Shown here: piece after piece, positions 4,424 to 55,198 of the stretch
Layout of the letters: each line of letters begins with the position of its first letter
Position numbering within the stretch: the first letter of the stretch is position 1
Virus record (IMG/VR): IMGVR_UViG_3300045988_110999
From: a virus
DNA: 64,000 bases
Strand: one strand, 5' to 3'
Position numbers and translations under genes: made by a program
The notes under the pieces: generated by a model
Database searches by the model: none
Seen by the model: the letters and a program-made list of their open reading frames with translations, nothing else
What the model was told of the DNA's origin: nothing

Positions 4424-4466
4424 ATATACGACTCCTTTCCCTATGTCAAAATTACTATATATGAGT

Positions 4467-4495
4467 ATTTTAACACATAAAGTGAGTATTTTCAA
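4467..4495 (-). promoter_or_regulatory. Sigma-70-like promoter upstream of dnaE
   Basis: Minus strand reads TTGAAA-ATACTCACTTTATGTGT(17 nt)-TAAAAT, about 45 nt upstream of the dnaE ATG. Confidence 0.55.
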
Positions 4496-4563
4496 CTGAG
4501 ACAAAAATAAGGCCACCCAAACGAGGGTGGCCATAAGCATAAAATGCTGTTTTTTGTCATTTG

Positions 4564-5949: not shown

Positions 5950-6321
5950 TTATTTACTGTACGAGTCAACCCTTTTTTGAATATCATCCAATCTCCGTTC
6001 TACAGACTCGAAACGTTCATGGAACCGGGCTTCGTCGAGGGCCAGCTGTTGCTGTTCAGCACCGATACGGTTCACTAAACTATTTAGATTGGATATACTC
6101 TGCACGAGCTGGTCGTACTTATCTCCGAGCATCTTGGCCCGTTCCCTCTGACGCTCTTCCCTTTCGTTCTCCCTTTCTTCAATCACTTGATCGTATTTCT
6201 CTCTCCATTCCCGTTCCTTGTCACGATGTGAAAAATACGGCTTGAGGATGGCCTCTCGGAAGCCACCCAATGCCGTACAAATCAAAATCAAAGCTTCTAT
6301 AACTGTTGTGAAATTCTCCAT
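5950..6321 (-). CDS. N-terminal TM plus charged coiled-coil protein (lysis-associated?)
   Basis: 'TVIEALILICTALGGF' TM followed by an E/R-rich helix; sits between the giant protein and the holin-like gene. Confidence 0.6.
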   Translation of the reverse strand: MENFTTVIEALILICTALGGFREAILKPYFSHRDKEREWREKYDQVIEERENEREERQRERAKMLGDKYDQLVQSISNLNSLVNRIGAEQQQLALDEARFHERFESVERRLDDIQKRVDSYSK

Positions 6322-6331
6322 TCATACCCCC

Positions 6332-9300: not shown

Positions 9301-12300
9301 AGTATTTTTTAAAGATATGAAGGGGGTCTTCAAATTGGCGTTGAAGGATACTCATGCGCTCTTTGCCGGGCAGGACACCGGCGGCGTACAGGGCCGCTCT
9401 TTGAGCTGTTTCTTCGTGAGTTGGGATACCTACCTTGTGTAGTTGTTTGTCGATACGGTTTTTGAGAGATAAAGCGTCTGAGGAGGGGGTGTTCCTATTT
9501 TCAATAAAGTTGAGAAAAGCTTTAACAGCCTTATCTGTGAAAGTACCATTTGAGAATGGTTTTAGAACCTTCGCTTTTTCCAAGATAGAGGCTCTAGCAG
9601 AGCTCAATGTTCCAGCTCCGTCGATGGCTTTGTTTGCCATATTGATAATTCTGCCTTCTACACCTTTTCGCTGCGATTTGTATTGAGGAGATTCTAAAGA
9701 TAATTTAAGCTGGGATAAAGTTTTAGCTACAAAAAGTTCATCATACAACTCTCTATCTTTTCTCAATGAATTTTGTAAAGTTTTGCTTCTTGATATTTTA
9801 TCGCATACGTAGTCAATGAATTCCGGATTTATTATAGCATGGTCGTATACAAGCATTTTCCAACTATTAGTAAATCCATCACCGTCTCGAAGTTGTTTAA
9901 TCAATTTATTTATATATTTAACTTCAAAATCTTTTAGCGTGTCATTCTCTTTATCGACGAAATTATTAGACGTGATATAATTCATCCCGTATTCTTTATC
10001 GCCTAATCCCCGTTCAATAGCGGCGTGGAGAGAGTGAATAGTTTCATGGAGTATAGTAGGTGTATTTTTATCCCCGGATAATGCGTCTTGGAAGATTCTA
10101 ATTACGTTGTATTCGGAGTAAGTTCTGCCGAGAGCTCCAGTCTTTTCCTTTTGCCCATCATAAACAAACACGGTTGCCATATCGTCAAGAGCTTCCGCAA
10201 TTTTCGACTGCAACCGTGGTGGTAAATCCTCGAAGGAATCATTTATTAATTTGTTTAAAGTGGGGCCGTCAATATTTACCCCTTCTGGAGTGGCCAAATG
10301 GATGGCTTTCTTTAGTTTGTTGCCAAGCTTGGTTAATCTATATTCGGGTCCAAGCCCCCCACCGGCTTCATGTACTTGTCCAGAAATTTTCTGTCCCTTT
10401 TCCTGATTTTTTTGCCTACTTCTTCCTGCGTCATTCCTTTTGGGAGGGTAAGAATTCCGCTGCACCACATCCCCCTCCAAATGCTCGGGTCTGTTACCCC
10501 CTCTGGCATCGGAGGTAGCTTCGTCGGTCTGTACATTCCCATCTTCTCCTTTCACTGTATGTCCATCCGCTAGGAATTGTTCCTGGTCTTCCTTACTAAG
10601 TCGGTTGAAAATATCCTGAGATGTATCATCCGGGAAGAAAGACCGAGAAGCACCTGTAACATGGACTTCATTTTCCTTTGTAACCTTAATGTTATCTGGT
10701 TCTGTATCTATATTATAGTAGTCTGCGAGATAATCCGCAATATCCTGTTTATCGGCATCCTTTAATTTAACTTTATCCCCACCGAAGGTTTCAATTTCCC
10801 CTTTTGGAATTTTAACATCCATGTCAGAAACAGAAGAAGTTACCATTTCATCTTTATATTTGTAAGACAGTTGATTTGGAGTAGCTATTCTTTCTTCTTT
10901 GGTGTTTACTATATATTTCCCTTGATTATTTACCGTTTCTCTATCTTTGCTCTCCGTTGCTTCGGCTTTGGTCTTTGCATTCTCTGTGTCTGCTTGCTTC
11001 TTGTATTTTTCGTATTCAGCCTTAGCCTTACTTACTTCTTCTTGGGTGTATTTGCCAGATTTGACGAGGTTCTGAAGAGCTTTGCCACCAGGGAAATTCA
11101 CGGAATTAGCTACCTTGGTAGGACCGTCGTTAACCCAGCTAATAATGTCAGGTACGAGATGCTCTTTGACATTCCCTCTCTGTACATACATACCTTTGTA
11201 CTTATCCTTACTAAGGGTGGCGGCACGTTCCCCGTATTTCTTTTCTAGTTCTTCGTGATGAAGGAAATAGTGAATAGGGTCGTTATTAGCCAGGTGCTTA
11301 CCACGGATTTCCTTAGCAAGAGCCTTACCGGCGGAATGAACAGCTTTTATTTCCTCTTTTGTCCCTTTTGATTTAGCTTCGTTTATGGTAGTTCTTGTCT
11401 TTTTAGCCTTTGTAGCCGGGGAGAGTTCTTTAACAGGTTTCTCTTTTGGTTTGGATTCACTTTCTCCACCTTGAGCTTTCGACATGATATCCAACAAATC
11501 TTGAGAGCTACCTTCAACCGGCTTGAGTATTGTTCTTTGAGCTTCTTTTTTGTTTTCGTAGCTCCTCTTTGCCCGTTCTCTATTCTTTTCGTCGGATACC
11601 TGCTTTGCCTGTCTATCTACTTCGGCTATCTTCTGTTCGATGTTCTGGATGTGGTCCAGAGGGTCATATTTATCCTGTGTACGGGCGTTGACGTAGGAGG
11701 TAACAGCTTCCTTGACGGATTCACGATACTTCTTAGGGAACTTGGAGAGGAGTCGGTTCATACCGAGACCTTTCTTGTAGTTAAAGAAGTTTTCTACGAA
11801 GTTATGGAGCTCTGTGACAGCCTCCTTGTCCCTACCTTTGTTGGCATACTGGGACAGCTTTCGAGCGAACGGTGATTGAATCGTTATTTCGTGTGATTTA
11901 TCGACACGCTGTTTTTCAAAACCACGGACGGCATCTACTTCAGCAATCTTATCCCGTTTGGCAATCTTGGCATTGGCCATCTCGATCTGATGGCTCTGTT
12001 CCTTAACGGACAGGCCTTCCATCTTCTTAGCATCGAGTGTAACCCCCCTGTTTTTAGAGCTGGAGTTAATGTGCTGTACCGTATCCATGTGATTCTTTTT
12101 GCTGACGATAGCTTGTGTCTTATCCCTATTTTCGGTAAGAGCTTTCCCGGAGAGAGCTTTAATCTGATTACGGATTTTAGGGGGAACTTCCCCACCGGCG
12201 CTTTTAGTTATAACCTGTTTCACGTCGTTAGGAAGAGAATCGAAATTACCATCGGAGGTGTAATATTTAGAATGGACGCCATTCTTAGCAAAGTCGTCCT

Positions 12301-14371
12301 TGATAGTCTGTTCTGTTGCCTTTTGTTTCCCTTTCTTTTGGGTTTCGTAGGAACGTGTTGCGGCGGCAGAACTTGCTCTCAGGGTCTTAGAGATACCGGC
12401 GTCGTCCGGGGTAAGGCCTAATTTATTAAGCCGTGCTTTACCAGCGTCAGAAATATCTCCACCCTTGGGTTTGTAGAAGTCGCTATGAGTCCCATTCTGT
12501 TTGATATCCTCTTGGATAGTGTTTACGGCGGTAGCTACGTTCTTCGTATGCTGTTCTTTATCAGCTTTACGGTTCGCTACTTCCTGTACGTGGATTTCCT
12601 TGCGCTGTGCCGGGAAGAAACCGGTGTTCGGAGAGATGCTATTGGCATTATCTAATTCCTGTTGGGAAATAGGAAGGCCCAGTTCATTTTTCTTTTGGAT
12701 GAGAGCTTGAGCCGTAGCCTGACGGTAACGGTCGTTATTTCGTTGTTGGAGGATAGCGGCTACTGGCTGTGCGCTCTTATTGTCGGAGATGATAGGGATA
12801 TTCGGCGATTCTATCATAGCTTTAACGAGGTCATCCCGTTCCGGGCCCGTCATCATTGCTGTCCCATGTACTGGATTATAGCCAAGGACGCTCGCTTCCC
12901 CACTATCAATCAGGTTAGCAATCGCCTGATTAGCTGAATACTGGTCGTCGCTCTTCCCGTAAGCTTCCTGTTCAGCTAAATCATACTCCGTTGGGTTATT
13001 CATCTTGTCCATGAGCTGTTGCGTGAATTCTTTAGGGCCTGTTGGTACAGAAGGTTCACTGACTGGTTGAGTAGCTGGGGCTTCCTGAGAGTTCATGGGG
13101 ATGGCATCTAAATCCTGCTGAGTAAGTTCAGTTTCGTCAACGGGGATATTTTCTGTAACCGGAGCTTCGTCTTGAATAGACTCTTCGACATTATGGGTAT
13201 CATCCTGTGCGTGAACGGCATCATCAATCGGACTGGGAACAACCTTTTCTTCACCAGTAGTGTCTACCCGTCTTGCTCTACGATGGCCGATACCACCAAG
13301 GAGGCCCATCGGAATCATGCCCATACCAGCCATAAACATCTGGTCCTTGGATTCATCACCCATTTCAATAGGATTGTAGTTGATATCTTCCCCGGTAAGA
13401 GCATTATTCTGGAATTCATTCTGTAAGCCTTCTGTATAGGATTCCATAGCCATACCCGGGACACTATGAGTAAGGAGTCGAGTAGAATATCTCTTGTCCG
13501 CAAAGTCTGCTACCTTGCCCCCAAAGTCAGACAGGGAGCCGAGAAGTCCTTTCCCAGCTTCCTGTTCGGTTGATTCTGTCGCTCTACTAAGGAGTCTCTT
13601 AGGAGCGTTTGCGGCTCCTTTCAACATGCTCATAGATACGGCATTAGATGCTACCGACAATCCAATATTATCCATGAAGTCAGTATCCATAGCATTACGA
13701 GCTTCTTCTTGTGTAGCCCCGTTCTGAATAGCCTGATTATATGTATCGCCTGCTTCTGATGCGGCATCTAAATAACCACCAGCGATGTCACCTGCGATTT
13801 TTGGAGCGGCACTGAAAGCTGTTCTAGCAATCCTTGCCCCCGTACCCAATTCTCCAACATCAGACCCTACGGCAATAGCCTTCTCTAAGGTGGAAGCTGT
13901 CTTTGCCAATCTTGCGGCTCTGGCCGCTTTTAAACCAGCTCCTACTACCGCACCACCAATACCGCCGGTAGCGGCGCCGACGAGAGCAGTGGCGGCCATG
14001 TCAGGGGCGGAAGAACCAACAAGATTGAAGGCGGTGTAAGCAAGGCCGTTTGGGTCTGTGATGAAATCAAAGAGACTATCGTTGCGGGTGAACTGCCGTC
14101 TTGCCTGTCTACCTTGGGCAAGAGCATCCCCAAAATCCTCGAGACCTTGTCCGAACCCGAATTCCTGATTCATATAAGTACCGATAGAACCGAGACTTGA
14201 CCCCAAACCATTCATAGCGCCGTTAATGGCACTATCTAAGAATCCACCATCACCGAATGAATCATAAGTCCCTCCATCATCCGGGGCAATGACACTATCG
14301 AGGTATTGGTCATTTGCGGCGGCTCTATCGTATAAGGCCTGAAGGTAATCTTCTGTAGTTCTTCCTGCCAT
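6332..14371 (-). CDS. Giant (2679 aa) multidomain virion/ejection protein, polyvalent-protein-like, with an HExxH zincin motif and TM-rich termini
   Basis: Uninterrupted ORF with AGGAGGG SD. Gly/Ala-rich hydrophobic N-terminal region; 'TILHETIHSLH' (HETIH at 10034-10048); C-terminal hydrophobic region 'FLVPMFIMAGALGMP...ALYGAPSLAGINLSGNIGLG'. Confidence 0.75.
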   Translation of the reverse strand: MAGRTTEDYLQALYDRAAANDQYLDSVIAPDDGGTYDSFGDGGFLDSAINGAMNGLGSSLGSIGTYMNQEFGFGQGLEDFGDALAQGRQARRQFTRNDSLFDFITDPNGLAYTAFNLVGSSAPDMAATALVGAATGGIGGAVVGAGLKAARAARLAKTASTLEKAIAVGSDVGELGTGARIARTAFSAAPKIAGDIAGGYLDAASEAGDTYNQAIQNGATQEEARNAMDTDFMDNIGLSVASNAVSMSMLKGAANAPKRLLSRATESTEQEAGKGLLGSLSDFGGKVADFADKRYSTRLLTHSVPGMAMESYTEGLQNEFQNNALTGEDINYNPIEMGDESKDQMFMAGMGMIPMGLLGGIGHRRARRVDTTGEEKVVPSPIDDAVHAQDDTHNVEESIQDEAPVTENIPVDETELTQQDLDAIPMNSQEAPATQPVSEPSVPTGPKEFTQQLMDKMNNPTEYDLAEQEAYGKSDDQYSANQAIANLIDSGEASVLGYNPVHGTAMMTGPERDDLVKAMIESPNIPIISDNKSAQPVAAILQQRNNDRYRQATAQALIQKKNELGLPISQQELDNANSISPNTGFFPAQRKEIHVQEVANRKADKEQHTKNVATAVNTIQEDIKQNGTHSDFYKPKGGDISDAGKARLNKLGLTPDDAGISKTLRASSAAATRSYETQKKGKQKATEQTIKDDFAKNGVHSKYYTSDGNFDSLPNDVKQVITKSAGGEVPPKIRNQIKALSGKALTENRDKTQAIVSKKNHMDTVQHINSSSKNRGVTLDAKKMEGLSVKEQSHQIEMANAKIAKRDKIAEVDAVRGFEKQRVDKSHEITIQSPFARKLSQYANKGRDKEAVTELHNFVENFFNYKKGLGMNRLLSKFPKKYRESVKEAVTSYVNARTQDKYDPLDHIQNIEQKIAEVDRQAKQVSDEKNRERAKRSYENKKEAQRTILKPVEGSSQDLLDIMSKAQGGESESKPKEKPVKELSPATKAKKTRTTINEAKSKGTKEEIKAVHSAGKALAKEIRGKHLANNDPIHYFLHHEELEKKYGERAATLSKDKYKGMYVQRGNVKEHLVPDIISWVNDGPTKVANSVNFPGGKALQNLVKSGKYTQEEVSKAKAEYEKYKKQADTENAKTKAEATESKDRETVNNQGKYIVNTKEERIATPNQLSYKYKDEMVTSSVSDMDVKIPKGEIETFGGDKVKLKDADKQDIADYLADYYNIDTEPDNIKVTKENEVHVTGASRSFFPDDTSQDIFNRLSKEDQEQFLADGHTVKGEDGNVQTDEATSDARGGNRPEHLEGDVVQRNSYPPKRNDAGRSRQKNQEKGQKISGQVHEAGGGLGPEYRLTKLGNKLKKAIHLATPEGVNIDGPTLNKLINDSFEDLPPRLQSKIAEALDDMATVFVYDGQKEKTGALGRTYSEYNVIRIFQDALSGDKNTPTILHETIHSLHAAIERGLGDKEYGMNYITSNNFVDKENDTLKDFEVKYINKLIKQLRDGDGFTNSWKMLVYDHAIINPEFIDYVCDKISRSKTLQNSLRKDRELYDELFVAKTLSQLKLSLESPQYKSQRKGVEGRIINMANKAIDGAGTLSSARASILEKAKVLKPFSNGTFTDKAVKAFLNFIENRNTPSSDALSLKNRIDKQLHKVGIPTHEETAQRAALYAAGVLPGKERMSILQRQFEDPLHIFKKYFPDGMPIYRLADGARRKMEKFVGDYSQKFLDVFKGLDKDERKVFDSLVLKANEMHRDPMQVINLDDGIHLAVRHDAFIEHYDSAPEALKKMQEIRNSGKYRLSKMIQESEENENAGFGKGFTVFALPKGSAAFKSEAAAQKYAKVHEKEAYVSMIRSLSDKPMKSSQVDNVMNSFMKYRDMMDKVYETSVQAAKESGANYKLPKKLNGYFPQIHLPYVVWIKDKDTKTFVRTASFYNASEASKKVKELNRAGQEAYWAEINPINAMAHGDRLAKVDRMTEDQLKQLNDEGLISVSESNNDTGNYNETLKRVFNSLFKEHHTVAVKDVMAHIEKVNRYKSNTGSAAHDNYVKKLQSQIRVTGLYKKLQKMKKDATISQDELNNIINSANMKQQFNPFFQKRSGASGYSQNVADSVYRYLITSGNFISKAKFYAEATAYYTSKYHKDIREEATTNEQKFLKTYIEANHRPTSVTALDRMINDYMNLLAEKDPTGIGSLLRRRYGHNLYTGLAKDTLSLQNLLKLGLFRPASLAVQAFQVLNANAKLGGNKFVGMSKYFRTGLKEATGSKNDAKWKELYDYIGINERSVAIDSEILGRPTGVFDKKILFGKSAKDFTDKSMWFFNVGDKWARKATAIGGYLKAMDDFKALTHDEKKMMLNEAITSWQTKKERARQNHYPFKAPKPTTESVRKEFVFNKTKDLVTETNFNYSVTDSPLAMTEAGVTGKLLLQFKKYPLFTLNFILHNTKEENIRFLVPMFIMAGALGMPCANLVDDIFDKTTGHSPVMALKKGMINWAGGSSAKKALVNVALYGAPSLAGINLSGNIGLGDAIQFDLGPTVSTVSNIAQGNGIIRSLAPRLGALEEAVTGKKENKYGQITAKYTPYDQLLKVFGFRTMAETNSSDATRVMKLATQKYNECKSQAKKEYIKNPNTDNYEALKIYGMSDRDIAKLLKTKDTTAMENSVKTVPKKAKSPAAQEVRDLSKTAQEFVK

Positions 14372-35840: not shown

Positions 35841-35915
35841 TGGCGGCGGTACTTAGAATCGAACTAAGACTAGCAGAGTCAAAGTCTGCTGTACTGACCG
35901 TTATACGATACCGCT
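35841..35915 (-). tRNA. tRNA-Gln (anticodon UUG)
   Basis: Cloverleaf by eye: anticodon stem GCAGA/TCTGC with loop CTTTGAC; T-arm CTTAG-TTCGATT-CTAAG; encoded 3' GCCA. Confidence 0.8.
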
Positions 35916-35918
35916 ATG

Positions 35919-35992
35919 TGGCATGGGTACAAGGACTCGAACCAAGATTGACGGTTTTGGAGACCGTAGTCTTTCCATTAGACGATACCCAC
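35919..35992 (-). tRNA. tRNA-Trp (anticodon CCA), with two U-U mismatches in the T-stem
   Basis: Acceptor GTGGGTA/TACCCAT; anticodon stem ACGGT/ACCGT with loop CTCCAAA; T-arm CTTGG-TTCGAGT-CCTTG is imperfect; encoded CCA. Confidence 0.6.
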
Positions 35993-35993
35993 A

Positions 35994-36081
35994 TGGCAGA
36001 GGAGGTGGGATTTGAACCCACGGTGCTGCTACGCACAGCTGTTTTCAGGACAGCCACCTTAATCCACTCGGACACTCCTCT
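35994..36081 (-). tRNA. Type II tRNA-Ser (anticodon UGA) with a long variable arm
   Basis: Acceptor AGAGGAG/CTCCTCT; anticodon stem GCTGT/ACAGC with loop CCTGAAA (C at position 33); variable arm GTGC-GTAGCA-GCAC; T-arm GTGGG-TTCAAAT-CCCAC; encoded CCA. Confidence 0.7.
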
Positions 36082-36085
36082 AATC

Positions 36086-36159
36086 TGGTTGCGGGGGATA
36101 GAGTCGAACTATCGTAACTGGGGAATGAGCCCAGCGTCCTACCTTTAGACGACCCCGCC
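36086..36159 (-). tRNA. tRNA-Met (anticodon CAU) with initiator-like features
   Basis: Anticodon stem CTGGG/CCCAG (three G-C pairs next to the loop) with loop CTCATTC; 1-72 is a G-A mismatch; T-arm GATAG-TTCGACT-CTATC; encoded CCA. Confidence 0.65.
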
Positions 36160-36837: not shown

Positions 36838-39294
36838 TTACATAGAACCGGCCAACGGGATTTCGTCTGTGACGACCTTCTCGTAAGAAGCGACCGGAGC
36901 AAAATAAATCTGGTCCTGATAGGCAAGTGCGTCAATCAGGTCATCATGCAAGGACTTCGGGAAAGCAAGGAATTCGCTTTCCAATTCCCCAAGAAAGGAC
37001 GCTCCCATCGGGAACCATACGGTGCCAGCTTTGAACCGGGGCTGTACGGCTTTGATACGCTCTTCTTTCTTTTCCTTGGCTTCCAAATCCTTGACCGTGA
37101 ACCAGATATTCCTCTTTGGCATTTCCTTTTCTATGAAGTGGGATAACGCCGCTTGGTAAGCGACCTTTTCCATACCCACATAGACAGGATGGTATCGAGT
37201 GACCGCCTCGAAGATAGCGTCTATCGTCTGGGTCGGATCGAACCTCCCATACTTTATATCCAATACGAACCAATGGTTTTCACTATTGACCCCCACAGTG
37301 CAGACTACGGTATAGTCCGCGGTTTCTTTCTGGGAAATAGCTAGGTCTACCGTAGTGAAGATGTTCATATCCTTCACATCAAGCTCTTCTTGCTTGTAGT
37401 ATTTGAAGTATTCTTTCTTGAACAGCTGGGTTTCCGGGGAAATAGCAATACACATCTTTTCCCGTTCCCATACATCCAGATTCCCGATTCGTCTAAAAGC
37501 TTCCCTTTCCGCTTTTATCTCTTCGGAGCTCCATCTTTCGGGCCATACACTGTTTCCTTCTGCGTCTAGGATAGGGATACGGACACCGGTAAACTTCAAA
37601 TCTTTCTGGTTCTCTATGACTCGTTCTATCAGGCATTTTTCACCCAGATTGTTCCCGATCATGAAGATTCTCGTCTTCTTCCCTAAGAACAATACGTCGG
37701 ACAGGAACCATTCCCAGTCCCCTTCCTGTACGGTATCTGACTTCGCATCTTCCAAGTCTTGTGGGTCGTCAATCAGGACAATAGACGGTCGGGCATCGTG
37801 AACGTTCAAACCACGGATAGCAGCCCCTTTGCCGTAAGCTTCAAAACGGACCCACATCTCTTCGTCATCTTTATCTTTTACGATGACCTCGAAACCGTTC
37901 TGGGACTGTTCTACGATACGTACCAGGTTCATGGATAGTAGCTCATTATTGAGCCATTCATCCTCAATTTCCTTTAACCGCTTACTGGCAGCTCTCTGCG
38001 TAGCCATGATAAAGACTACGTACTGCCTATCCTTGGAAGGATATGTCAGGCAGTGCATCGGGAAGGCTCTTAGTACGACGCCGCTATTATGGGTAACGAT
38101 GCAGCCAGTACCACATAAAAACAGCCCCGTAGGGCTGTCTACCTTGATACACATGGTGGGGACGGACTCACATTTAGAGACTTTCTTGACACTCCTCATC
38201 AGAGTGCGTTTATCCTGAGTATCACAAATCAAATCCCTCTTCCTTTTTAACTGAGGGAATTTAACTGTGGTCTTGAACGACACATCATAATGTGGCTTAC
38301 ATTCTTTGCCGTAGAGCTTAGATGGTTTCTTTATAATAGTAGCCTTAATACCTAAGCTTCTGACTAAATATAAAGTCCCCATAGCCAATCTTTCATTGGT
38401 GTTTGTGAAAGTAACCGTCCCAGCCTTGCTACCAGCCTTGGCAATCGTACCGTCACTATCAATGAGACCGGCCAATAATTGCCACCTGTTTTCCTCGCTG
38501 TCGTAGTAATACTCTTCCGGGATGTGCTTGTCGTATATCAACCCAAGGGATTTAAGCTCTTTCAAGAACCCTCCTTGGAACTTTATCGTCATTGCCGTTT
38601 TATCTTTGCGGCATGTCTTGGTTCCCCAGTCGATGTTCAGGAATGTCTCTTCAAAATCTTCCCCACCGCAAGTGATTTCGGCTGCTTTTGAATGACCATC
38701 TCCAAGCCATAACCCCAAATCATACGGAGAAATGATATGTTCTTTCCGAGGGTATTGTAAGGGCATAGCTAATGGTATACGGTATGCCTTTTCTTGATAT
38801 CCTTTTTTAGGTTTTCCCAAATCCTGCTTTGCGTACATCTCCAGTGTGGTTACGATATTCCATCTACGTTTGTGCTTGTCCCATACGCTCCACAGATGTT
38901 CTGCATCAGCAGTGATTTCCTCCCCGTCGTCAAATTCGACTTTGAAGCAAGGATGATCGTAAAAAATCTCGGAGGTGCTACCAACTAACACTGGGTTCCC
39001 ATTCTCATCAAATACGTAGTCCCCCGGCTTGATTTCCCCCATCAGCTTATATCCACTAGGGGTCGGGATAGGGGTGAAAATCGAGATTGCTTTTCCTGAC
39101 TCACGAAAGCCCTCTACAGCGTAGTGGTGCTTGCCTTTTAACAGTATCTTTCCCCATTCCTCTTGGAATGAAGGGGTCTTTACTTCATCTTCGACGGGGA
39201 GGAATACTCTTCTGAATAACATAAGGTCATCTTTGGCGTCACGGAACAGCTTCGCCATCATTACTTTCTTGTCCATATCTCTCTCCCCTTTCAT
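36838..39294 (-). CDS. terL: Terminase large subunit, interrupted by an intein in the Walker A P-loop
   Basis: 'VEGFRESGK|[intein]|SGVVLRAF' restores the G....GKS P-loop. Nuclease half includes 'DLAISQKETADYTV'. ATG 39276 (behind GGGGAG) is a likelier start than 39294. Confidence 0.9.
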   Translation of the reverse strand: MKGERDMDKKVMMAKLFRDAKDDLMLFRRVFLPVEDEVKTPSFQEEWGKILLKGKHHYAVEGFRESGKAISIFTPIPTPSGYKLMGEIKPGDYVFDENGNPVLVGSTSEIFYDHPCFKVEFDDGEEITADAEHLWSVWDKHKRRWNIVTTLEMYAKQDLGKPKKGYQEKAYRIPLAMPLQYPRKEHIISPYDLGLWLGDGHSKAAEITCGGEDFEETFLNIDWGTKTCRKDKTAMTIKFQGGFLKELKSLGLIYDKHIPEEYYYDSEENRWQLLAGLIDSDGTIAKAGSKAGTVTFTNTNERLAMGTLYLVRSLGIKATIIKKPSKLYGKECKPHYDVSFKTTVKFPQLKRKRDLICDTQDKRTLMRSVKKVSKCESVPTMCIKVDSPTGLFLCGTGCIVTHNSGVVLRAFPMHCLTYPSKDRQYVVFIMATQRAASKRLKEIEDEWLNNELLSMNLVRIVEQSQNGFEVIVKDKDDEEMWVRFEAYGKGAAIRGLNVHDARPSIVLIDDPQDLEDAKSDTVQEGDWEWFLSDVLFLGKKTRIFMIGNNLGEKCLIERVIENQKDLKFTGVRIPILDAEGNSVWPERWSSEEIKAEREAFRRIGNLDVWEREKMCIAISPETQLFKKEYFKYYKQEELDVKDMNIFTTVDLAISQKETADYTVVCTVGVNSENHWFVLDIKYGRFDPTQTIDAIFEAVTRYHPVYVGMEKVAYQAALSHFIEKEMPKRNIWFTVKDLEAKEKKEERIKAVQPRFKAGTVWFPMGASFLGELESEFLAFPKSLHDDLIDALAYQDQIYFAPVASYEKVVTDEIPLAGSM
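38086..39090 (-). mobile_element. Intein (335 aa) with Ala1 and the W/C/T triplet (class 3 type) plus a LAGLIDADG homing endonuclease domain
   Basis: Block A 'AISIFTPIPTPSG'; block B 'DAEHLW'; block F 'TMCIKVD...GLFLCGTG'; block G 'CIVTHN|S'; LAGLIDADG motifs 'LGLWLGDGHS' and 'LLAGLIDSDGTI'. 1005 nt, in frame. Confidence 0.85.
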
Positions 39295-42230: not shown

Positions 42231-43538
42231 ATGGGTAAACGTATTATTTGCATCGACAGTAAGGACAATAAGGTATGTTTCTATGATAAGAACGACAATC
42301 TTTTTGTTCTGGATATTGGCAACGAAATGCTTATGGGAAAGACTTTCCCCTGCCCTCATTGTGGGAAAGAACACGAGGTAAAGGATTTTGTACAGATCGG
42401 GGATGAGCTACTATGCTCTGATTGCTATGACCCTAGCTTCTATGATAAATGCTCAGAATGTGGGGAATACTTTAAGAAGGATGAGCTGTTTGACATAGAC
42501 GGTAAACGGCTCTGCAAGTCCTGTTTCAACAATAATTATTTTACCTGTGATAATTGCGGAGCGGTTTATCCAAAATCAGAAGCCGTCTATGTTGGATATG
42601 ACAGATTTTGCCAGGATTGTGTCGACCAGCTTCTAGACGAAGGAGAACTCATCCAGTGCGTCTGCTGTGATGAAATCTTGCGGGCTGAGGATGCTTATGA
42701 GCTGGATGGAAATTTCTACTGCTCGTCCTGCTATGACCAGGAACGTGAAGAAGAATATGGAGACTCCATCGTAGGATACCACTGTAACCGTCCATTCCGG
42801 TTCAAGAGTTTGGCCAGCGATGTAGATTACCCGAAAAAAGGTAATCTTTACCTAGGTTTAGAACATGAACTGTCTAACGCCGGGGAAGATAACTACAAGC
42901 TGGCAAAAGAGCTTGTAGATGATTATGACCGTGTTTGCGAACACGACTCGTCAATCAGTGATGGGTTTGAAGTCATCTCAGACGCATTGACATTTGATTA
43001 TTGGAGAAAGAAGGAAGATTTGCAGGCTTATATGAATACCATTAACAGATTGTCGGATTTCGATCCGGACGACTCTAGCGGTATCCATGTCCATATTTCT
43101 AGAGGCCCTCTCTCCGACAATGCTGTCATTGAAATGGCGTGGTTCGTCATGCAACATTACGACGACTGCATTAAATTTGGTCGTCGCGACCCCGACGAAT
43201 GTGAGTATTGTGAACGGGTCACGAGAGGCGACAAGGAAGACTTATGGGATTATGCTACGGGTCATGGTGTAGCCGTCAACCTCGAACATGAATCGAACCT
43301 CGAATTGCGGTTCTTTAAGACGACCGACGATGTCGACCACATGTGGGCCATCTTAGAATTTAGCTACGCATTGGCTATGGTAGCGAAAGGGGGTGTCATT
43401 GATATTGAATGGGCGGATATCCGTAAATTCTGTGAAGAAGATGGGAAAGAAGAACATTTCCTCGCCGAATTGAACGAAGGATTCGATTGCGAAGAGAATG
43501 AGGATTATGAATATAACCTCACCGAATACTTTGCTTGA
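42231..43538 (+). CDS. Amidoligase (Amidoligase_2 / glutamine-synthetase-like COOH-NH2 ligase family) with four N-terminal LIM-like CxxC zinc-ribbon pairs
   Basis: N-terminus has CPHC..CSDC, CSEC..CKSC, CDNC..CQDC, CVCC..CSSC. C-terminus has 'YLGLEHELS...HDSSISDGFEVISDALT...SSGIHVHISRG...NLELRFFKTT'. Confidence 0.7.
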   Translation: MGKRIICIDSKDNKVCFYDKNDNLFVLDIGNEMLMGKTFPCPHCGKEHEVKDFVQIGDELLCSDCYDPSFYDKCSECGEYFKKDELFDIDGKRLCKSCFNNNYFTCDNCGAVYPKSEAVYVGYDRFCQDCVDQLLDEGELIQCVCCDEILRAEDAYELDGNFYCSSCYDQEREEEYGDSIVGYHCNRPFRFKSLASDVDYPKKGNLYLGLEHELSNAGEDNYKLAKELVDDYDRVCEHDSSISDGFEVISDALTFDYWRKKEDLQAYMNTINRLSDFDPDDSSGIHVHISRGPLSDNAVIEMAWFVMQHYDDCIKFGRRDPDECEYCERVTRGDKEDLWDYATGHGVAVNLEHESNLELRFFKTTDDVDHMWAILEFSYALAMVAKGGVIDIEWADIRKFCEEDGKEEHFLAELNEGFDCEENEDYEYNLTEYFA

Positions 43539-43591
43539 TTTTTAACCAAAATTACTTACTTTACATTGTCTTTATTACAGGAGGTATATAT

Positions 43592-44482
43592 ATGTGTGTT
43601 ATCGCTGTCTATGAAAAAGGTTTGGTTTTGAACGAAAATGAATTAAAGAACTGCTTTACAGGCAATTCCAACGGGGCTGGACTCATGTATCAGAAAGACG
43701 GCAAAGTCCATATTGAAAAAGGCTTCATGAAATGGGATACATTCTGGGAGGCGGCTAAACATCTCCCCTCTGATGTAGATAGGGTCTTTCATTTCCGGAT
43801 TGCTACTAGTGGTAAAATCAGTGCCGCTTGTTGTCATCCCTTCCCTATCTGTGATGACTATAAGAAAATGAGCTTGGCTAGTTGTGATACCCCCATGGGA
43901 TTCGCCCATAACGGGGTTCTTGGCGATTTCGAGCCGAAGAAAGGAATGAAGTCCACTTATTCAGATTCTATGAAGTTCGGTAAAGAAGTCCTGTTCCATT
44001 TAGGTAATCTCTTAAATGAACGTAGTGTACGGGATTTGATTGAATTGTACACAACTTCCCGGTTTGCCATTATGACTCCCAAGAATACCTATATGATTGG
44101 CTCATGGGAACAGTCAAGAGAGTCGGGAGCGTTTTATAGTAACACGTCCTATGAAGGATACCGTTATTTAAATTGTTTCGACGATTCGTTCGTCAGAAGT
44201 TATTATTCCGACTTTGTTTATGGTGGATATACACAAGATGATTATACGGAAGGTATTCTCATTGAAAGATTCCCAAACAACGAAAAAATAGAAAATGAAA
44301 TTGCCGAAGCTATCGAGGAACAGTTGGGCGTGTTCATCTACGATACCGACGACTCCAATGTAGGAAAATTCAAAGATACCACATTCTTCATTGAAAGGGA
44401 ATTAGGCAAACGACTGCCAGAGAGTGGAATTATTAAAGTTGGCAAGCGTGATGTCAAATGGAGAAGAATCAGTTTAAAATAA
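43592..44482 (+). CDS. Class II (Ntn-type) glutamine amidotransferase-like protein
   Basis: Mature N-terminus 'MCVIAVYEKG' (Cys2 nucleophile), 'FHFRIATSGKISAACCHPFPI', 'FAHNGVLGDF'. ATG 43592 follows AGGAGG. Confidence 0.7.
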   Translation: MCVIAVYEKGLVLNENELKNCFTGNSNGAGLMYQKDGKVHIEKGFMKWDTFWEAAKHLPSDVDRVFHFRIATSGKISAACCHPFPICDDYKKMSLASCDTPMGFAHNGVLGDFEPKKGMKSTYSDSMKFGKEVLFHLGNLLNERSVRDLIELYTTSRFAIMTPKNTYMIGSWEQSRESGAFYSNTSYEGYRYLNCFDDSFVRSYYSDFVYGGYTQDDYTEGILIERFPNNEKIENEIAEAIEEQLGVFIYDTDDSNVGKFKDTTFFIERELGKRLPESGIIKVGKRDVKWRRISLK

Positions 44483-44495
44483 TAATAAAGTTAAA

Positions 44496-44520
44496 GGGCC
44501 TGCTTAGACAGGCCCTTTTC
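44496..44520 (+). terminator. Rho-independent terminator
   Basis: GGGCCTG-CTTAGA-CAGGCCC followed by TTTT. Confidence 0.7.
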
Positions 44521-44547: not shown

Positions 44548-44784
44548 ATGACAAGGTTAGAGATGTATTTGACAGAAGCTACGAGGATGTATGCATTTTA
44601 TCCTTTATGGGATCGTAATGACACTCCGAGTGTAATAAGAAGGTTTATCGAGGATAGAACGAGATGTTTCGACAGGCCATACCCCCTTTTATTCGATTGT
44701 CCGAAAGTTTTGTCTTGTTACGACGATTGCGAGGCTTGCTGGAATCGTTTCTTTAAGAACTTTAGTGAGGTGCCTGCCTTATGA
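44548..44784 (+). CDS. Cys-rich small protein, paralogue 1 of 5 (C...C..CW family)
   Basis: '...CPKVLSCYDDCEACWNRFFKNF'. ATG 44548 behind AAGAGGTGA. Its stop overlaps the next ATG (ATGA). Confidence 0.6.
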   Translation: MTRLEMYLTEATRMYAFYPLWDRNDTPSVIRRFIEDRTRCFDRPYPLLFDCPKVLSCYDDCEACWNRFFKNFSEVPAL

Positions 44785-45026
44785 ATGAAGAGGAAAGGAT
44801 TTTAACAATAAGAGTAAGGAACGTCTGTAAAGATATGGGCGCAGATAATTTAAGTGTTTTCGCATCTGGATTGATAGAGTATGCGTTGGAACATGGTGGT
44901 ACAGATACCATATCAGGACTACCTCGAATCTGTTCCGGTTCTAACTGTATCGTTGGCAAGACTTGTAAAAGATGCTGGGGAAAGGAATTCGATAAGCTAC
45001 AGGAAGGTGGTGAACCATTATTATGA
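44781..45026 (+). CDS. Cys-rich small protein, paralogue 2 of 5
   Basis: 'MNEEERILTIRVRN...CSGSNCIVGKTCKRCWGKEF'; ATGA coupling on both sides. Confidence 0.65.
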   Translation: MNEEERILTIRVRNVCKDMGADNLSVFASGLIEYALEHGGTDTISGLPRICSGSNCIVGKTCKRCWGKEFDKLQEGGEPLL

Positions 45027-45280
45027 ACAGAGAAGAATTAGTATTGACCTTACGGATTAGATATGTAATGAGTATACGCAACGGGGCCAATATCACACTT
45101 GTCATAGATGACATGAGGAGATGTTGCGAAAAGCTTAATTATCAGAAGGCTTATGGATTTTCCCTTTTTTGCGCATGTCCGTGCTCCTGTACTAGGAATT
45201 GTTCCTGCTCAGAATGTTGGGAAGAAGCAATAACCAAATTCCTTATCCTTAGCAGCGGAGATGTTGATATTTCTTTGTAA
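45023..45280 (+). CDS. Cys-rich small protein, paralogue 3 of 5
   Basis: 'MNREELVLTLRIRY...CACPCSCTRNCSCSECWEEAI'. Confidence 0.65.
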   Translation: MNREELVLTLRIRYVMSIRNGANITLVIDDMRRCCEKLNYQKAYGFSLFCACPCSCTRNCSCSECWEEAITKFLILSSGDVDISL

Positions 45281-45291
45281 CGGAGGCGAAA

Positions 45292-45540
45292 ATGATGAAT
45301 AACGACGAAATGGTATTGACGATGAATATTAGGTATCTACTCACGATGAATGCAAAAGAAACGGCCCTTTTGGGGGTCATTAAAAATCGTGTTAATGTCA
45401 TCAACAACCGGAGAGAGAATAATTGCGAACCCTATGCCGGTTGTCCTTGTGACTGCCCCATAAACATAACTTGCACACAATGTTGGTCCAGGGCAATAGC
45501 CAGGTTTGTGTGTATAGAAGACAATGCGCCCGTTTTATGA
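45292..45540 (+). CDS. Cys-rich small protein, paralogue 4 of 5
   Basis: 'MMNNDEMVLTMNIRY...GCPCDCPINITCTQCWSRAI'; GGAGG SD. Confidence 0.65.
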   Translation: MMNNDEMVLTMNIRYLLTMNAKETALLGVIKNRVNVINNRRENNCEPYAGCPCDCPINITCTQCWSRAIARFVCIEDNAPVL

Positions 45541-45551
45541 GAGGTGATACT

Positions 45552-45803
45552 ATGATAGAATGTGAAATCTATATGACACTGGCAATGAGAAATGTTTACG
45601 ATAACGACTTCGTAAGGCCTTTAAAAATCAAGGACAGGGTTAAATACTTTGCCTCAGCGTACAAAGAAAGAAAGGCTACTAAAAGCTGGGTATATTGCGG
45701 GCATCCGGTTACACTATCATTTTGCCACTTTTCGTGCCCTGATTGTTGGAGACATTGGACAAAAGAATTTACAGACAATAAACAAGACCATTGCGATTTA
45801 TAA
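45552..45803 (+). CDS. Cys-rich small protein, paralogue 5 of 5
   Basis: '...YMTLAMRNVY...YCGHPVTLSFCHFSCPDCWRHW'; ATG 45552 behind GAGGTGA. Confidence 0.6.
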   Translation: MIECEIYMTLAMRNVYDNDFVRPLKIKDRVKYFASAYKERKATKSWVYCGHPVTLSFCHFSCPDCWRHWTKEFTDNKQDHCDL

Positions 45804-51834: not shown

Positions 51835-53037
51835 CTATTTTACATAAAAGCGTCTTGCGGCTTCCGACTGACGTTCTTTGGAATACGAGCTGATACGTTT
51901 CAAGTAGCCGATAACTCGTGTACCATAATCAACGTCATGAGAACCACATTCCGTGCAATGGTCTTCTGTGTTTACGTTGATATAACCACAATCATTGCAA
52001 ATGGTAACTAAGCAATTATATGTCCAGTAATTTACTCCTAATCTCCCGGCCACACAAATTAAATCATATGCCTGATTCTTGCTGAACAGCTGGGCGATGT
52101 TAAGATGACATGCGCTACCACCATCGAGGTACTTAGTGGTTTCTTTCCCATGAAGGAACAACTTATCGAGAATGGTTAAAGAATCGTTTTCAACTGGGAA
52201 GAAATAAGAGTTATAGCAGTCACGGGGTACGGACAACCCATCATGCTTATCCCACTGAGCATTTTTAACGCCAAGGCCCTCCGCAGGCACATATTCGGTG
52301 TTAAATCGGAACCCATATACAGCCCTATCTGCCTTATTGAGGTCGTAAATAACTTTCAAGTACTTGGATACTTCTTTCTGATATGCTTCTTTATCAACTA
52401 CGGGGGAGAATCCTTTATATTCCATAGCTTCAAGCATACCGTTGATACCAATAGTACCAAACTGAGTATCGAAGTTAATAAACTGAGCTGTGTAAGCCGG
52501 TAACATACCAAGCTCGATGTAATGTTTGATAACGGCTCTGTGAGCGGCAAGGTATTTATGAATACGAGAAATCAAGTCACCGAACGGTAACTTACCTTCA
52601 TACTGCTGTACGTACCGGTTCATGTTGATGGTAATTACTCGGAAAGAGCCAGTTGATACACCGCCAGCCCCCAACGTGTAAGAGAAGGTATTGTCAGCCA
52701 GTTCGTTGCGGAGCCGGCAACACGATGCGAGAGAGTCAGCACTACGAGACTCATAGATGAAGAAGGACAGGCCCTTAGACATTTCTTCGGCAAGGAACCA
52801 TGCAAAGTCCTTATCTTTCGGTTTCTTATCCTCGTCCAGCAACACGGCGGCGGTAAGTACCGGATAGGTAAGGAGTTCTTTTTTGCGCTCCATGCGGAAC
52901 CATTCCATAAAGAATTCCTGTAACCGACTCAGACTCTTGTAATCTGGTTCGGTGCCATCAGGGAAACGGAAACCGCCAAAGATACCATCAAAGTAGTATT
53001 TATCGAATACAGAGATATTCCAAAACACGGATTGATT
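51835..53037 (-). CDS. nrdD: Anaerobic ribonucleoside-triphosphate reductase NrdD, exon 2
   Basis: Begins 'NQSVFWNISVFD'. C-terminal Zn ribbon 'CNDCGY...CTECGS' and glycyl-radical motif 'TRVIGYLKR'. Confidence 0.9.
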   Translation of the reverse strand, partial: NQSVFWNISVFDKYYFDGIFGGFRFPDGTEPDYKSLSRLQEFFMEWFRMERKKELLTYPVLTAAVLLDEDKKPKDKDFAWFLAEEMSKGLSFFIYESRSADSLASCCRLRNELADNTFSYTLGAGGVSTGSFRVITINMNRYVQQYEGKLPFGDLISRIHKYLAAHRAVIKHYIELGMLPAYTAQFINFDTQFGTIGINGMLEAMEYKGFSPVVDKEAYQKEVSKYLKVIYDLNKADRAVYGFRFNTEYVPAEGLGVKNAQWDKHDGLSVPRDCYNSYFFPVENDSLTILDKLFLHGKETTKYLDGGSACHLNIAQLFSKNQAYDLICVAGRLGVNYWTYNCLVTICNDCGYINVNTEDHCTECGSHDVDYGTRVIGYLKRISSYSKERQSEAARRFYVK

Positions 53038-53346
53038 CGAGCGCCCTATGCTTTCACATAGGCTCTGACTATCTCTTACTAACGAATGTTAGCACACCAT
53101 TTCGAGGAACGTATCAATAGTTCCCCTACTCCCCCACAATAGGGGATAGTCGATACACCTTCTAAACTGTAATGTTGGCATAACTTATACCTGCCTTTAT
53201 ATTATATATCGTATGGTAGGTAACTCCATAAAGTTTAGCTTGGCTCGGGATTGGCATACCTGAATGGCTTTAGCTTTCCCCGACAGCCGTTGAATAATCA
53301 ACGACCTCGCTGATAAACGATTAGATGTGTAGTGGCAATATTACTT
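53038..53346 (-). mobile_element. ORF-less group I intron (309 nt) splitting nrdD
   Basis: Exon 1 ends ...CGUGGU. The intron starts AAGUAAUAUUGCCAC, so P1 is GUGGU/GCCAC with a U-G pair at the splice site. The intron ends ...CUCG. The spliced junction reads 'NQPAAARG|NQSVFWNISVFD'. Confidence 0.75.
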
Positions 53347-53958
53347 ACCACGTGCCGCGGCTGGCTGGTTGAGGGCATAAACAACGCCCTGTAATTCCTG
53401 TGCGATACGGTCTTTAGCTACAGAGAGGTAATTATTCCCATACTGTTTACGAGCAAAATAGTCGAAGTACATAAGGAACTCTACGGTTGCCGTTGCCCCG
53501 GCCCAATTCGTAGCCAGTTGGTATACGAGATTCACAAAGGAACCGCAGAAGGACTGGAGATTCTTAGGAGCTTTACTCGTGCCCCCTAAACACTTTGTAC
53601 CATTCAGCAAAAACGGGTACATAGTAACAGAGGCGCAGTAAGGAAGAAAAGCAGCTAATGTTTCGTCATGGCAATACAGAAGATGACTTTCAATATCTTC
53701 CTCGTACTGGTCGGCTAAATCCTCTCCAAACATTTCCGTGATTTTGTCTTTGACGATTTTACGGCTGACCTGGATGTTCTCGAACTTGTACATCTCTTCC
53801 TTGAGTGTGCCCATGTTCTTTTCGGAAACATTGGAGTTAGGGTCTACTAAGGAAGCCGAGGCGTTATTGGTGGCCCCGATATAAAAATTAATGAAATCTA
53901 CCTTTTTCTGAATCTGTTCCGGTGTAAGATAGTTAAAGAACGATTTCTTATTTGTCAT
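53347..53958 (-). CDS. nrdD: Anaerobic ribonucleoside-triphosphate reductase NrdD, exon 1
   Basis: '...WAGATATVEFLMYFDYFARK...QGVVYALNQPAAARG'. ATG 53958 behind GAGGAGG. The unspliced frame stops 2 codons into the intron. Confidence 0.9.
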
Positions 53959-54221
53959 CAAAGAGCCTCCTCAACAAAATCTTTTAATACTTCCGGAGGG
54001 ATAACCCCTTCAATCCGGCTAATCTCTTTGTCGTCATCATAGACAACAACTGTAGGGTAAATGTGCAGATTGTATTTTTTCTCCATTAGGGAGGATTCTA
54101 CCCTTTTATTCTCAAAATCAATCTCATTTTTATACTTTTCAGCCAGCTCTTTAAATGTGCCACTGATTCGATTGCAATGGAAGCAGTTGTCGATATAGAA
54201 CTTACAGATTTTCTTACTCAT
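53958..54221 (-). CDS. Thioredoxin/glutaredoxin-fold protein (CxxC)
   Basis: 'KFYIDNCFHCNRISGTFKELAEKY...YPTVVVYDD'; ATG 54221 behind AAGGGGTGA. Confidence 0.75.
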   Translation of the reverse strand: MSKKICKFYIDNCFHCNRISGTFKELAEKYKNEIDFENKRVESSLMEKKYNLHIYPTVVVYDDDKEISRIEGVIPPEVLKDFVEEAL

Positions 54222-54732
54222 CGCTATCACCCCTTTGGAAATACTCTTTAGTCTTGTCTTCCCACGTCTGGTAAACAGGGTTAAATTCGTAGAACCGCTG
54301 ATTGGTCGTCGGAGAATCAAGACCACCTTTATCTCTTTCGTATCTGCCAGCCTTTATCCATTTAATCGGTAGCCTAGGGAGGACTCCCAAACCATCATCG
54401 CCAACATAAATACCAACCTGGAACATACACGATAGGTCCAATAAAAGAAGTTCTAATGCAGTTCTAGATACCCCTTCATTATTCCAGCCACCCATAATGA
54501 CGACGGCGTTTGCCCCAAGCTTATATTGCTCATGAACATAATCAATCATTTCTTGGGCTGTCATATTCGGCCGGGTGTGGTTTGTATCCCAAAGCTCCGG
54601 ACTGTGACATCCTTCGCAATGGCAGGTACAGTTACCTATTTCAAAAAACACAGAGATACGATTAGGTATCTCTATAAGGGTAATTCCTTTATTTACAACG
54701 GGAAATTTATCATCATATTCTAAATCAGCCAT
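54214..54732 (-). CDS. nrdG: Anaerobic RNR activating enzyme NrdG (radical SAM)
   Basis: 'VFFEIGNCTCHCEGCHSPELW' cluster motif; adjacent to nrdD; ATG 54732 behind GGAGGAG. Confidence 0.8.
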   Translation of the reverse strand: MADLEYDDKFPVVNKGITLIEIPNRISVFFEIGNCTCHCEGCHSPELWDTNHTRPNMTAQEMIDYVHEQYKLGANAVVIMGGWNNEGVSRTALELLLLDLSCMFQVGIYVGDDGLGVLPRLPIKWIKAGRYERDKGGLDSPTTNQRFYEFNPVYQTWEDKTKEYFQRGDSDE

Positions 54733-55198
54733 TGAAAAACTCCTCCATTTTCTTTTTATTTTCAACATACTTGTTACATTCTTTTCGGAAAGCTTTGTAT
54801 TGTTCGATGAGTTTTTTCTTGCCTTTACGGGCCTCTTCACGAGTCCGGAAGAAGTTACTGCTTAGGCTTTGTTTAAAGCTTTGGACACTACCAAAGATAG
54901 CACTCTCTTCCGTGTGGTTAGGAAGAGGAATGTACCAATATCGTTCCCCGACCCGAGGTTTGAATGTTTCCTTCTTCGCTTCCGGTTCGGTATCTTTGTC
55001 GATATAATATTCGCCATCCAGCAGTTTCAACAGTACATTTTTAGAGACATCGTTATTAGAGGCATTTCGCAGACCCTTATCAGGGTCGAAAAAGAAGAAT
55101 CCCACGAGGTCGTTTCCGTTATTAAAATGACGGACAGCAAACGGTTTATTGAATTCCATATCGAAAATTCGTGCAATATCAGGAGCATACAACATCAT
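54725..55198 (-). CDS. Hypothetical protein
   Basis: ORF track. Confidence 0.55.
   Translation of the reverse strand: MMLYAPDIARIFDMEFNKPFAVRHFNNGNDLVGFFFFDPDKGLRNASNNDVSKNVLLKLLDGEYYIDKDTEPEAKKETFKPRVGERYWYIPLPNHTEESAIFGSVQSFKQSLSSNFFRTREEARKGKKKLIEQYKAFRKECNKYVENKKKMEEFFNG

Follow-up and report, generated by a model that had tools for sequence, protein, structure and literature searches.

The window analysed here is a stretch of 64,000 nucleotides from the IMG/VR virus record IMGVR_UViG_3300045988_110999, an uncultured human-gut phage according to a match with a contig of 65,984 bp from a human-gut metagenome. We consider two adjacent genes on its plus strand, ORF1 (42231..43538, 435 amino acids), the product of which is a predicted zinc-finger amidoligase, and ORF2 (43592..44482, 296 amino acids), the product of which is a predicted class-II glutamine amidotransferase (GAT-II). 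An earlier reading of the same DNA, referred to below as the original prediction, had proposed that they form a functional pair.

ORF1, defined by calling and translation of open reading frames (ORFs), is preceded by the ribosome-binding site AAAGGGG, and ORF2 starts at ATG 43592, downstream of a GGAGG ribosome-binding site, so that its protein begins MCVIAV. Full-length homologues (21 for ORF1 and 389 for ORF2) span identities from 97% to about 25%, and both are therefore real genes. A hairpin resembling an intrinsic terminator (44493..44518, plus strand), recovered by a consensus scan and by RNA folding, lies 11 nt past a triple stop codon and closes the transcription unit 3' of ORF2; it has a folding energy of -18.4 kcal/mol (z = -4.4, none of 200 shuffled sequences being as stable) and is directly followed by UUUUCUU, in agreement with the proposal that the pair has a terminator of its own.

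Predicted catalytic domains of ORF1 and ORF2

The C-terminal part of ORF1 contains an Amidoligase_2 catalytic domain (42768..43445, plus strand; residues 180-405), delimited by alignments, PF12224 and Foldseek. The amidoligase landmarks listed in the original prediction are all present, namely GLEHE (209-213), DSSISDGFEVIS (239-250), GIHVH (284-288) and ELRF (358-361). Both in the family alignment and in a wider one to which mycobacteriophage and environmental members contribute, no variation is seen at G209, E211, E213, D239, E247, G284, H286, H288, N350, E358, R360 and F362, and hardly any at R319; all the acidic, His and Arg residues that an acyl-phosphate-forming site of the glutamine synthetase (GS) fold should have are conserved without change down to about 20% identity. 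We take this pattern (ExE, D, E, HxH, R, N, ExR) to fit the ATP/Mg acyl-phosphate mechanism of GS sites. ORF1 itself scores 16.7 bits against PF12224, under the cut-off of 22, and the family model is matched by 19 of 22 members of the ORF1 family (E <= 0.01; best 1.6e-8) and by 49 of 96 relatives of its zinc module (E <= 0.001; best 3.7e-22).

The AlphaFold2 (AF2) model of ORF1 has a predicted local distance difference test (pLDDT) score of 88, and Foldseek aligned its C-terminal part with the gamma-glutamylmethylamide synthetase GmaS (9qur), GS-III (3o6x), YbdK (1r8g/1tt4), Dop/PafA and a plant glutamate-cysteine ligase (GCL, 2gwc). These matches have E-values of about 1e-3 to 1e-2, probabilities of 0.9-1.0 and TM-scores of 0.25-0.34, modest values explained by the multi-domain nature of the model. 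A profile of the catalytic domain found nothing among all PDB sequences, the full-length profile matched LIM proteins only, and a scan of genome contigs with the amidoligase alignment recovered no relatives. As the catalytic domain matches no PDB sequence, a residue-by-residue mapping onto GS, GCL or PafA is not possible and the comparison with these enzymes rests on fold similarity. Placement of this domain among amidoligase/GS-like ligases, as originally proposed, is borne out by the PF12224 matches of the family and by the Foldseek results, and we predict that ORF1 is an ATP-dependent carboxylate-amine ligase of the GS/gamma-glutamylcysteine synthetase (GCS) fold, with what appears from model and alignments to be an intact GS-fold active site of the acyl-phosphate type.

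ORF2 begins with a glutaminase domain (43592..44161, plus strand; residues 1-190), supported by invariant columns, alignments of hidden Markov models (HMMs) and Foldseek. Its motifs HFRIATSG (67-74), HPF (82-84) and HNG (106-108) fall among the invariant residues C2, N25, G28, G30, H67, R69, T72, H82, P83, N107, G108 and D125. M1 and C2 are invariant across 43 sequences of the ORF2 family, and all but one of the 60 amidotransferases listed for paired loci start with MC. In HMM alignments to GlmS (1xff) and PurF (1ao0), the HxRxATxG, HP, HNG and SDT(E) motifs coincide: HfRiATsG aligns to HTRWATHG of GlmS, HNG to HNG, and SDt to SDTE of PurF. Presumably R69, T72, N107-G108 and D125 are the equivalents of GlmS Arg73, Thr76, Asn98-Gly99 and Asp123, which bind glutamine or form the oxyanion hole. 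The AF2 model (pLDDT 88 overall, above 90 across residues 1-190) has the four-layer alpha-beta-beta-alpha architecture of the N-terminal nucleophile (Ntn) fold, and Foldseek matched it to GlmS 3ooj (E = 5.7e-7) and also to the glutaminase domains of GFAT-1, PurF and AsnB.

A low-confidence linker (residues 191-216) leads to a C-terminal beta-alpha-beta domain of about 80 amino acids (44240..44479, plus strand; residues 217-296), which is delimited by the AF2 model and weak Foldseek hits; its sequence varies between homologues and the only similarities are weak ACT-like matches (2zho, 1sc6). Against Pfam, ORF2 reaches E = 0.079 and 12.3 bits with GATase_4, below the gathering cut-off of 23, and 14 of the 43 family members match that family (E <= 0.01); being barely seen by Pfam, ORF2 belongs to a divergent sub-family (phrog_25883). 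The invariant C2, the GlmS/PurF alignments and the structural matches agree with the class proposed originally, an Ntn-type class-II enzyme with a Cys nucleophile. We therefore describe ORF2 as a predicted stand-alone class-II Ntn glutamine amidotransferase, in which Cys1 would be exposed as the nucleophile after Met removal, and its conserved Arg and Asp probably hold the alpha-carboxylate and the alpha-amino group of either glutamine or a gamma-glutamyl moiety.

The acidic zinc-finger array of ORF1

After a short N-terminal beta-meander (residues 1-30), ORF1 carries a four-finger zinc array of treble-clef, LIM-half-like type (42351..42731, plus strand; C41-C167) with a net charge of -17 and an isoelectric point (pI) of 4.17. 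Its 16 cysteines (C41/C44/C62/C65, C74/C77/C95/C98, C106/C109/C127/C130 and C143/C146/C164/C167) correspond exactly to the four pairs of the original prediction, CPHC/CSDC, CSEC/CKSC, CDNC/CQDC and CVCC/CSSC, and every unit has the form CxxC-x17-CxxC. Neither these cysteines nor the catalytic motifs are chance features: homologues down to about 25% identity keep them with little or no variation.

The description of these fingers as LIM-like is fair. Pfam LIM (PF00412) matches ORF1 in three stretches with 33.4 bits against a cut-off of 22.9, the best of them spanning just positions 27-56 of the 58 in the model, that is its second half; PDB profile matches of the region are the LIM domains of paxillin and CRP2, and Foldseek matched the N-terminal part to LMO2, CRP1 and PINCH1. 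The phage fingers share with eukaryotic LIM domains the zinc-knuckle and helix geometry and a similar CxxC-x17-CxxC spacing. However, read from the sequence, the linkers between fingers are of 8, 7 and 12 residues (7-12, where the canonical spacer has two) and all 16 ligands are Cys, whereas canonical LIM ligand sets contain His or Asp; for these reasons the fingers are LIM-like and not canonical LIM. They further differ from eukaryotic LIM domains in being strongly acidic and in varying in number from 3 to 9 among relatives.

Using HMMER, residues 1-178 of ORF1 were scanned against 1.8 billion representative proteins, which gave 1,239 clusters at E <= 1e-3. Among the best 148 of these, 82 have 3-9 fingers (mode 5) followed by an amidoligase domain, so that the fusion is a common architecture and not a peculiarity of the window phage. 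A Pfam scan of the zinc-module relatives revealed no enzymatic partner besides the amidoligase. The array thus seems to be tied almost exclusively to the amidoligase, as a dedicated appendage of the ligase. Some relatives consist of fingers alone, and 22 others (P0146, P0149, P0159, P0160 and 18 more) carry the same acidic fingers behind an N-terminal domain of about 300 residues, here called domain X, with the motifs LSxNPxDxL, WxSCH and SRxYP. Domain X could not be identified by PDB profile, PHROGs or Pfam searches, its sole match being phrog_18912, a PHROG to which no function is assigned.

The median values for the array in 98 finger-amidoligase proteins are -24 for net charge (-17 per 100 residues) and 4.05 for pI; only six arrays have a pI above 7, and the acidic residues occupy conserved positions within the finger; the catalytic domain is near neutral. 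The original prediction had considered nucleic acid, besides a substrate, as what the fingers recognise. A conserved polyanionic array makes DNA or RNA binding unlikely, and a basic ligand fits better.

Pairing of the two genes and genomic context

The amidoligase alignment retrieved 80 IMG/VR loci, in which co-occurrence of the two genes was assessed. A GAT-II gene beside the amidoligase, nearly always immediately downstream and on the same strand, was recognised by HMM in 52 of these loci and by BLAST clustering in 67; of the 13 that lack it, six have under 400 bp of sequence on the downstream side. In the reverse test, starting from the amidotransferase, the amidoligase lies directly upstream in eight of nine bacterial-genome loci (Veillonella, Phascolarctobacterium, Prevotella, a Clostridia metagenome-assembled genome, Ignavibacteria and others). 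The two genes overlap or are separated by at most 6 nt in 37 of 72 pairs, and no third gene family is common across lineages among the 80 viral loci, from which we conclude that the two genes are a conserved core, sufficient alone. The same arrangement, GAT-II directly downstream of the amidoligase, is found in the phages that carry the related proteins P0008, P0013 and P0016, in mycobacteriophage Tesla (gp108/gp109) and in an environmental podovirus, and cluster-S mycobacteriophages also carry the pair. In a Christensenellales phage GAT-II is 1.1 kb from the amidoligase, and in the LUZ24-like phage UFV-P2 the order is kept with an HNH homing endonuclease as the sole interruption. Co-occurrence is strong from either side, and on this comparative evidence the pair is co-inherited, adjacent and often translationally coupled across very different phages, in support of the pairing described originally.

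Two variants were observed among the paired loci. In the related gut phage loci L007 (4690-5979 and 6001-7803, encoding paralogues of 429 and 600 amino acids) and L008, two tandem zinc-finger amidoligases precede one GAT-II. The Tesla amidotransferase gp109 (L001 5456-6355) carries in its C-terminal extension a Cys-rich, zinc-finger-like motif, CLICN...CDSCGTCQDC, so that both partners have putative zinc sites in the mycobacteriophage lineage.

Amidoligase and glutamine amidotransferase genes have been noted in genome papers on phiEco32, LUZ24/PaP3/tf/UFV-P2, RIO-1-like and OM43 phages, and likewise on mycobacteriophage Marvin (cluster S), C. clostridioforme prophages and Poseidoniales viruses. 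As far as their available text goes, these papers all draw on two sets of comparative-genomics predictions (Iyer et al. 2009; Hardies et al. 2013), namely cell-wall or peptide modification and superinfection exclusion. This literature confirms that the pair is recurrent and experimentally uncharacterised, as originally stated.

In the window, ORF1 and ORF2 lie near the start of a rightward operon, divergent from an intein-containing terminase gene. The pair is followed by an anti-repressor-like gene (Ant) and an SNF2 helicase gene and, further along, by genes for a primase-helicase, Rad52, a PD-(D/E)XK nuclease and an anaerobic ribonucleotide reductase; its position in an operon with Ant, SNF2 and replication genes suggests early expression. 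Ten small ORFs flanking the pair gave no meaningful Pfam or PHROG match, and the larger ORFs scanned elsewhere in the window are replication and repair genes or have no match. The PADLOC defence models matched neither ORF1 nor ORF2, and an NCBIfam search of the pair returned weak zinc-finger noise only.

Directly downstream of the pair, at 44548-45803 (plus strand), are five tandem paralogous small ORFs of 78-85 amino acids, 20-26% identical, with an N-terminal M..E..LT...R motif, a C-terminal P...C..CW motif and a terminal Leu in all; none has a Pfam or PHROG match. We considered these small Cys-rich proteins as substrates or tags and rejected them because the family is confined to the phage lineage of the window, with L004 and L011, the closest related phage contigs, and because the terminal Leu is not kept in L011.

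On the minus strand, the large terminase gene (36838-39294) is interrupted by an intein with a LAGLIDSDG motif (Pfam Hom_end, LAGLIDADG_3 and Terminase_6C), and four tRNA genes (Gln-TTG, Trp-CCA, Ser-TGA and Met-CAT; 35841-36159) lie between the portal and terminase genes. The phage tRNA-Gln prompted us to consider tRNA-dependent Glu-to-Gln transamidation, which was dropped since the array is acidic and the cassette also occurs where hosts have GlnRS. The NrdD gene is apparently split on the minus strand (51835-53028 and 53341-53961, with about 310 nt between the ORFs), Rfam giving no intron at the gathering threshold, and a radical-SAM/4Fe-4S activase-like gene is found nearby (54217-54840, minus strand). 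The structural region contains two very large ORFs on the minus strand, at 6332-14371 (2,679 amino acids) and 647-4540 (1,297 amino acids).

Possible function and comparison with known systems

We favour the reading that ORF1 and ORF2 form a two-subunit, glutamine-dependent and ATP-driven amide synthase with a basic target held by the fingers, to which we give a probability of about 0.45. In this scheme ORF2 would hydrolyse glutamine and pass the ammonia to ORF1, which would use ATP to activate a carboxylate of the target as an acyl-phosphate, from which the amide would then be formed, while the acidic array would dock the basic target, for instance a protein tail or polyamine-like amine, rather than DNA or RNA. 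This reading is preferred because the sites of ORF1 and ORF2 both look intact and the two genes are tightly coupled, a coupling indicated by their adjacency in viral loci, the reverse test, the short gaps and the lack of a third gene; the docking role is suggested by the near-exclusive link of the fingers to the ligase and by their conserved acidity. A precedent is the usual adjacency of the genes for two-subunit amidotransferases, among them GatD/MurT, CarA/CarB and PabA/PabB.

Several points weigh against it. Physical contact between ORF1 and ORF2 and an ammonia channel are assumptions, and no amidoligase/GAT-II fusion of the Rosetta-stone kind occurs among about 110 amidoligase-bearing ORFs. 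About 10% of the viral loci with enough flanking sequence are without GAT-II, and so is a related phage, L006, the single clear exception among close relatives; its amidoligase (6001-7314) is 37% identical to ORF1 and has no GAT-II within 6 kb on either side. The Pfam family nearest to ORF2 is GATase_4 (YafJ/EgtC type), the sole characterised member of which, EgtC, acts as a gamma-glutamyl amidohydrolase rather than as a donor of ammonia, and extended cassettes with gamma-glutamyl cyclotransferase and further ligases point to gamma-glutamyl peptide chemistry rather than amidation. Literature searches up to 2026 yielded no functional study of any member of the family.

The main rival explanation, which we regard as possible but doubtful, is that ORF1 writes and ORF2 erases or processes a gamma-glutamyl or peptide tag. 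ORF1 would couple glutamate, or some other amino acid, by an amide or isopeptide bond to an amine, for example a lysine of a basic protein, a polyamine or a metabolite, and ORF2, as an Ntn amidohydrolase, would trim the gamma-glutamyl group, remove it or transfer it, by analogy with EgtA/EgtC in ergothioneine synthesis and PafA/Dop in pupylation. Foldseek indeed places ORF1 as near to PafA/Dop, YbdK and GCL as to true glutamine synthetases, and on the ORF2 side the family matches GATase_4, 1te5 is among the best sequence matches, and the conserved R69 and D125 would suit gamma-glutamyl-X as well as free glutamine. It would also account for the 'gamma-glutamyl amidoligase' and ATP-grasp ligase that accompany the cyclotransferase in extended cassettes, and the tandem amidoligases of L007 and L008 with their single GAT-II suggest stepwise ligation; an acidic docking array fits a basic, amine-bearing target here too. 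However, for two genes coupled so tightly, often in translation, on one early transcript, a two-subunit enzyme is a more parsimonious explanation than a writer and its eraser. The top structural matches of ORF2 are ammonia-donating domains, with EgtC/YafJ-type proteins outside the top 50, and no small tag protein accompanies the pair from lineage to lineage, the local small Cys-rich family being lineage-specific. We think it unlikely that the array is a targeting module, possibly DNA-mimic-like, which captures a basic host protein (nucleoid-associated, ribosomal or defence) for amidation or gamma-glutamylation by the pair. If it were so, the pair would be a post-translational 'writer' of the phage for host take-over or counter-defence, and the domain X-finger and finger-only proteins would be alternative effectors or decoys acting on the same target.

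A further explanation is cell-wall modification: in the cytoplasm the pair would alter the peptide stem of precursors of peptidoglycan, for example through amidation or an amide linkage of an unusual kind, which would lead to poor adsorption of later phages and hence to superinfection exclusion. MurT/GatD provides a precedent for glutamine-dependent amidation of a peptidoglycan carboxylate. The available literature attributes this explanation, as a prediction on cassettes of the phiEco32, LUZ24 and RIO-1 type, to Iyer et al. 2009 and Hardies et al. 2013. We think it improbable for the present pair: phages with the pair infect mycobacteria, Gram-negatives and Firmicutes/Negativicutes, hosts of differing wall chemistry, and the pair is annotated in viruses of the murein-less Poseidoniales archaea, a weak argument as these hosts are predicted. 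Both proteins are probably cytoplasmic, judging by Cys4 fingers that need a reducing environment and by the soluble globular folds predicted; a multi-finger acidic array is no obvious match for a lipid-linked muropeptide, and the rest of the seven-gene cassette is absent from the window. An auxiliary metabolic role, in which a GS-like ORF1 would use free glutamate plus ammonia and ORF2 would be a general glutaminase, the pair boosting the nitrogen or glutamine metabolism of the host, seems very improbable. Several genome papers, in the text available, do class the pair among auxiliary metabolic genes, a Planctomycetes paper in eLife being a further literature match, and the fold of ORF1 is related to glutamine synthetase. 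However, the family is very distant from true GS, no solved GS being found by the catalytic-domain profile, and the model has no separate GS-type N-terminal domain but a zinc-finger array in its place; a conserved targeting module and strict pairing would make no sense for bulk metabolism, and a synthetase and a glutaminase acting on free glutamine would make a futile cycle.

Whichever reading holds, the cassette belongs to the more widespread of the two-enzyme modules in phage early regions, with hosts that include mycobacteria, Pseudomonas, E. coli, marine bacteria and gut Firmicutes/Negativicutes; its annotation in archaeal-assigned viruses, those of the Poseidoniales (predicted hosts), speaks weakly against a purely peptidoglycan role. 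More than 15 years after it was first noticed the literature has assigned it no substrate. If the target were a host protein, the activity of the pair would represent a new class of phage-encoded protein modification. Culturable carriers (Marvin-like mycobacteriophages, LUZ24-like and phiEco32-like phages) offer a better experimental entry than an uncultured gut phage.

Among known systems, the logic proposed for the amide synthase resembles that of GatD/MurT, AsnB, GlmS and PurF, in which a glutaminase feeds ammonia to an ATP-using, carboxylate-activating enzyme. Like ORF1 and ORF2, GatD and MurT are encoded by adjacent genes, and the catalytic residues of GlmS and PurF align with those of ORF2. 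By contrast, GatD is a class-I enzyme and MurT has a Mur-ligase fold without homology to ORF1, and class-II amidotransferases are usually fused to their synthase whereas ORF1 and ORF2 are separate proteins. The EgtA/EgtC pathway combines a GS/GCS-fold ligase with a stand-alone class-II, amidotransferase-like Ntn hydrolase; the likeness lies in this combination with a GATase_4-type hydrolase, a family to which that of ORF2 is linked. There is however no close homology, EgtC is not among the structural matches of ORF2, egtB, egtD and egtE are absent here and the context is a phage early operon. With the GS/GCL/PafA-Dop superfamily, ORF1 shares the predicted fold of residues 180-405, but this domain is far smaller (about 230 amino acids) and without sequence-profile similarity, and a zinc-finger array is fused in the place of the GS N-terminal domain.

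The closest relatives are the pairs of phiEco32, LUZ24, RIO-1, OM43 and Marvin, in which the same two enzyme families are adjacent among early genes. ORF1 and ORF2 have direct though distant homologues in gp108 and gp109 of Tesla (24-28% identity), and the amidoligase is upstream of the amidotransferase in UFV-P2, Tesla and the window alike. The cassettes of LUZ24 and RIO-1 add a COOH-NH2 ligase, an ATP-grasp enzyme and gamma-glutamyl cyclotransferase, whereas the window, where these three were sought in the flanks and in the remainder without any being found, holds the two-gene core only, and no cluster of the extended-cassette genes of Hardies et al. 2013 recurs in the 80 viral loci. Unlike the amidoligase of the Christensenellales phage, which has no fingers, ORF1 belongs to a sub-group with a multi-finger acidic array, and ORF2 differs from the known phage enzymes as a short amidotransferase with its own C-terminal domain of about 80 amino acids. 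The pair and the finger fusion are thus already known and common, and ORF1 and ORF2 are a further member of a widespread uncharacterised pair; what is new here is the two-gene minimal core, the conserved acidity of the array, the sharing of this array with the domain X family and the distinction of its fingers from canonical LIM domains.

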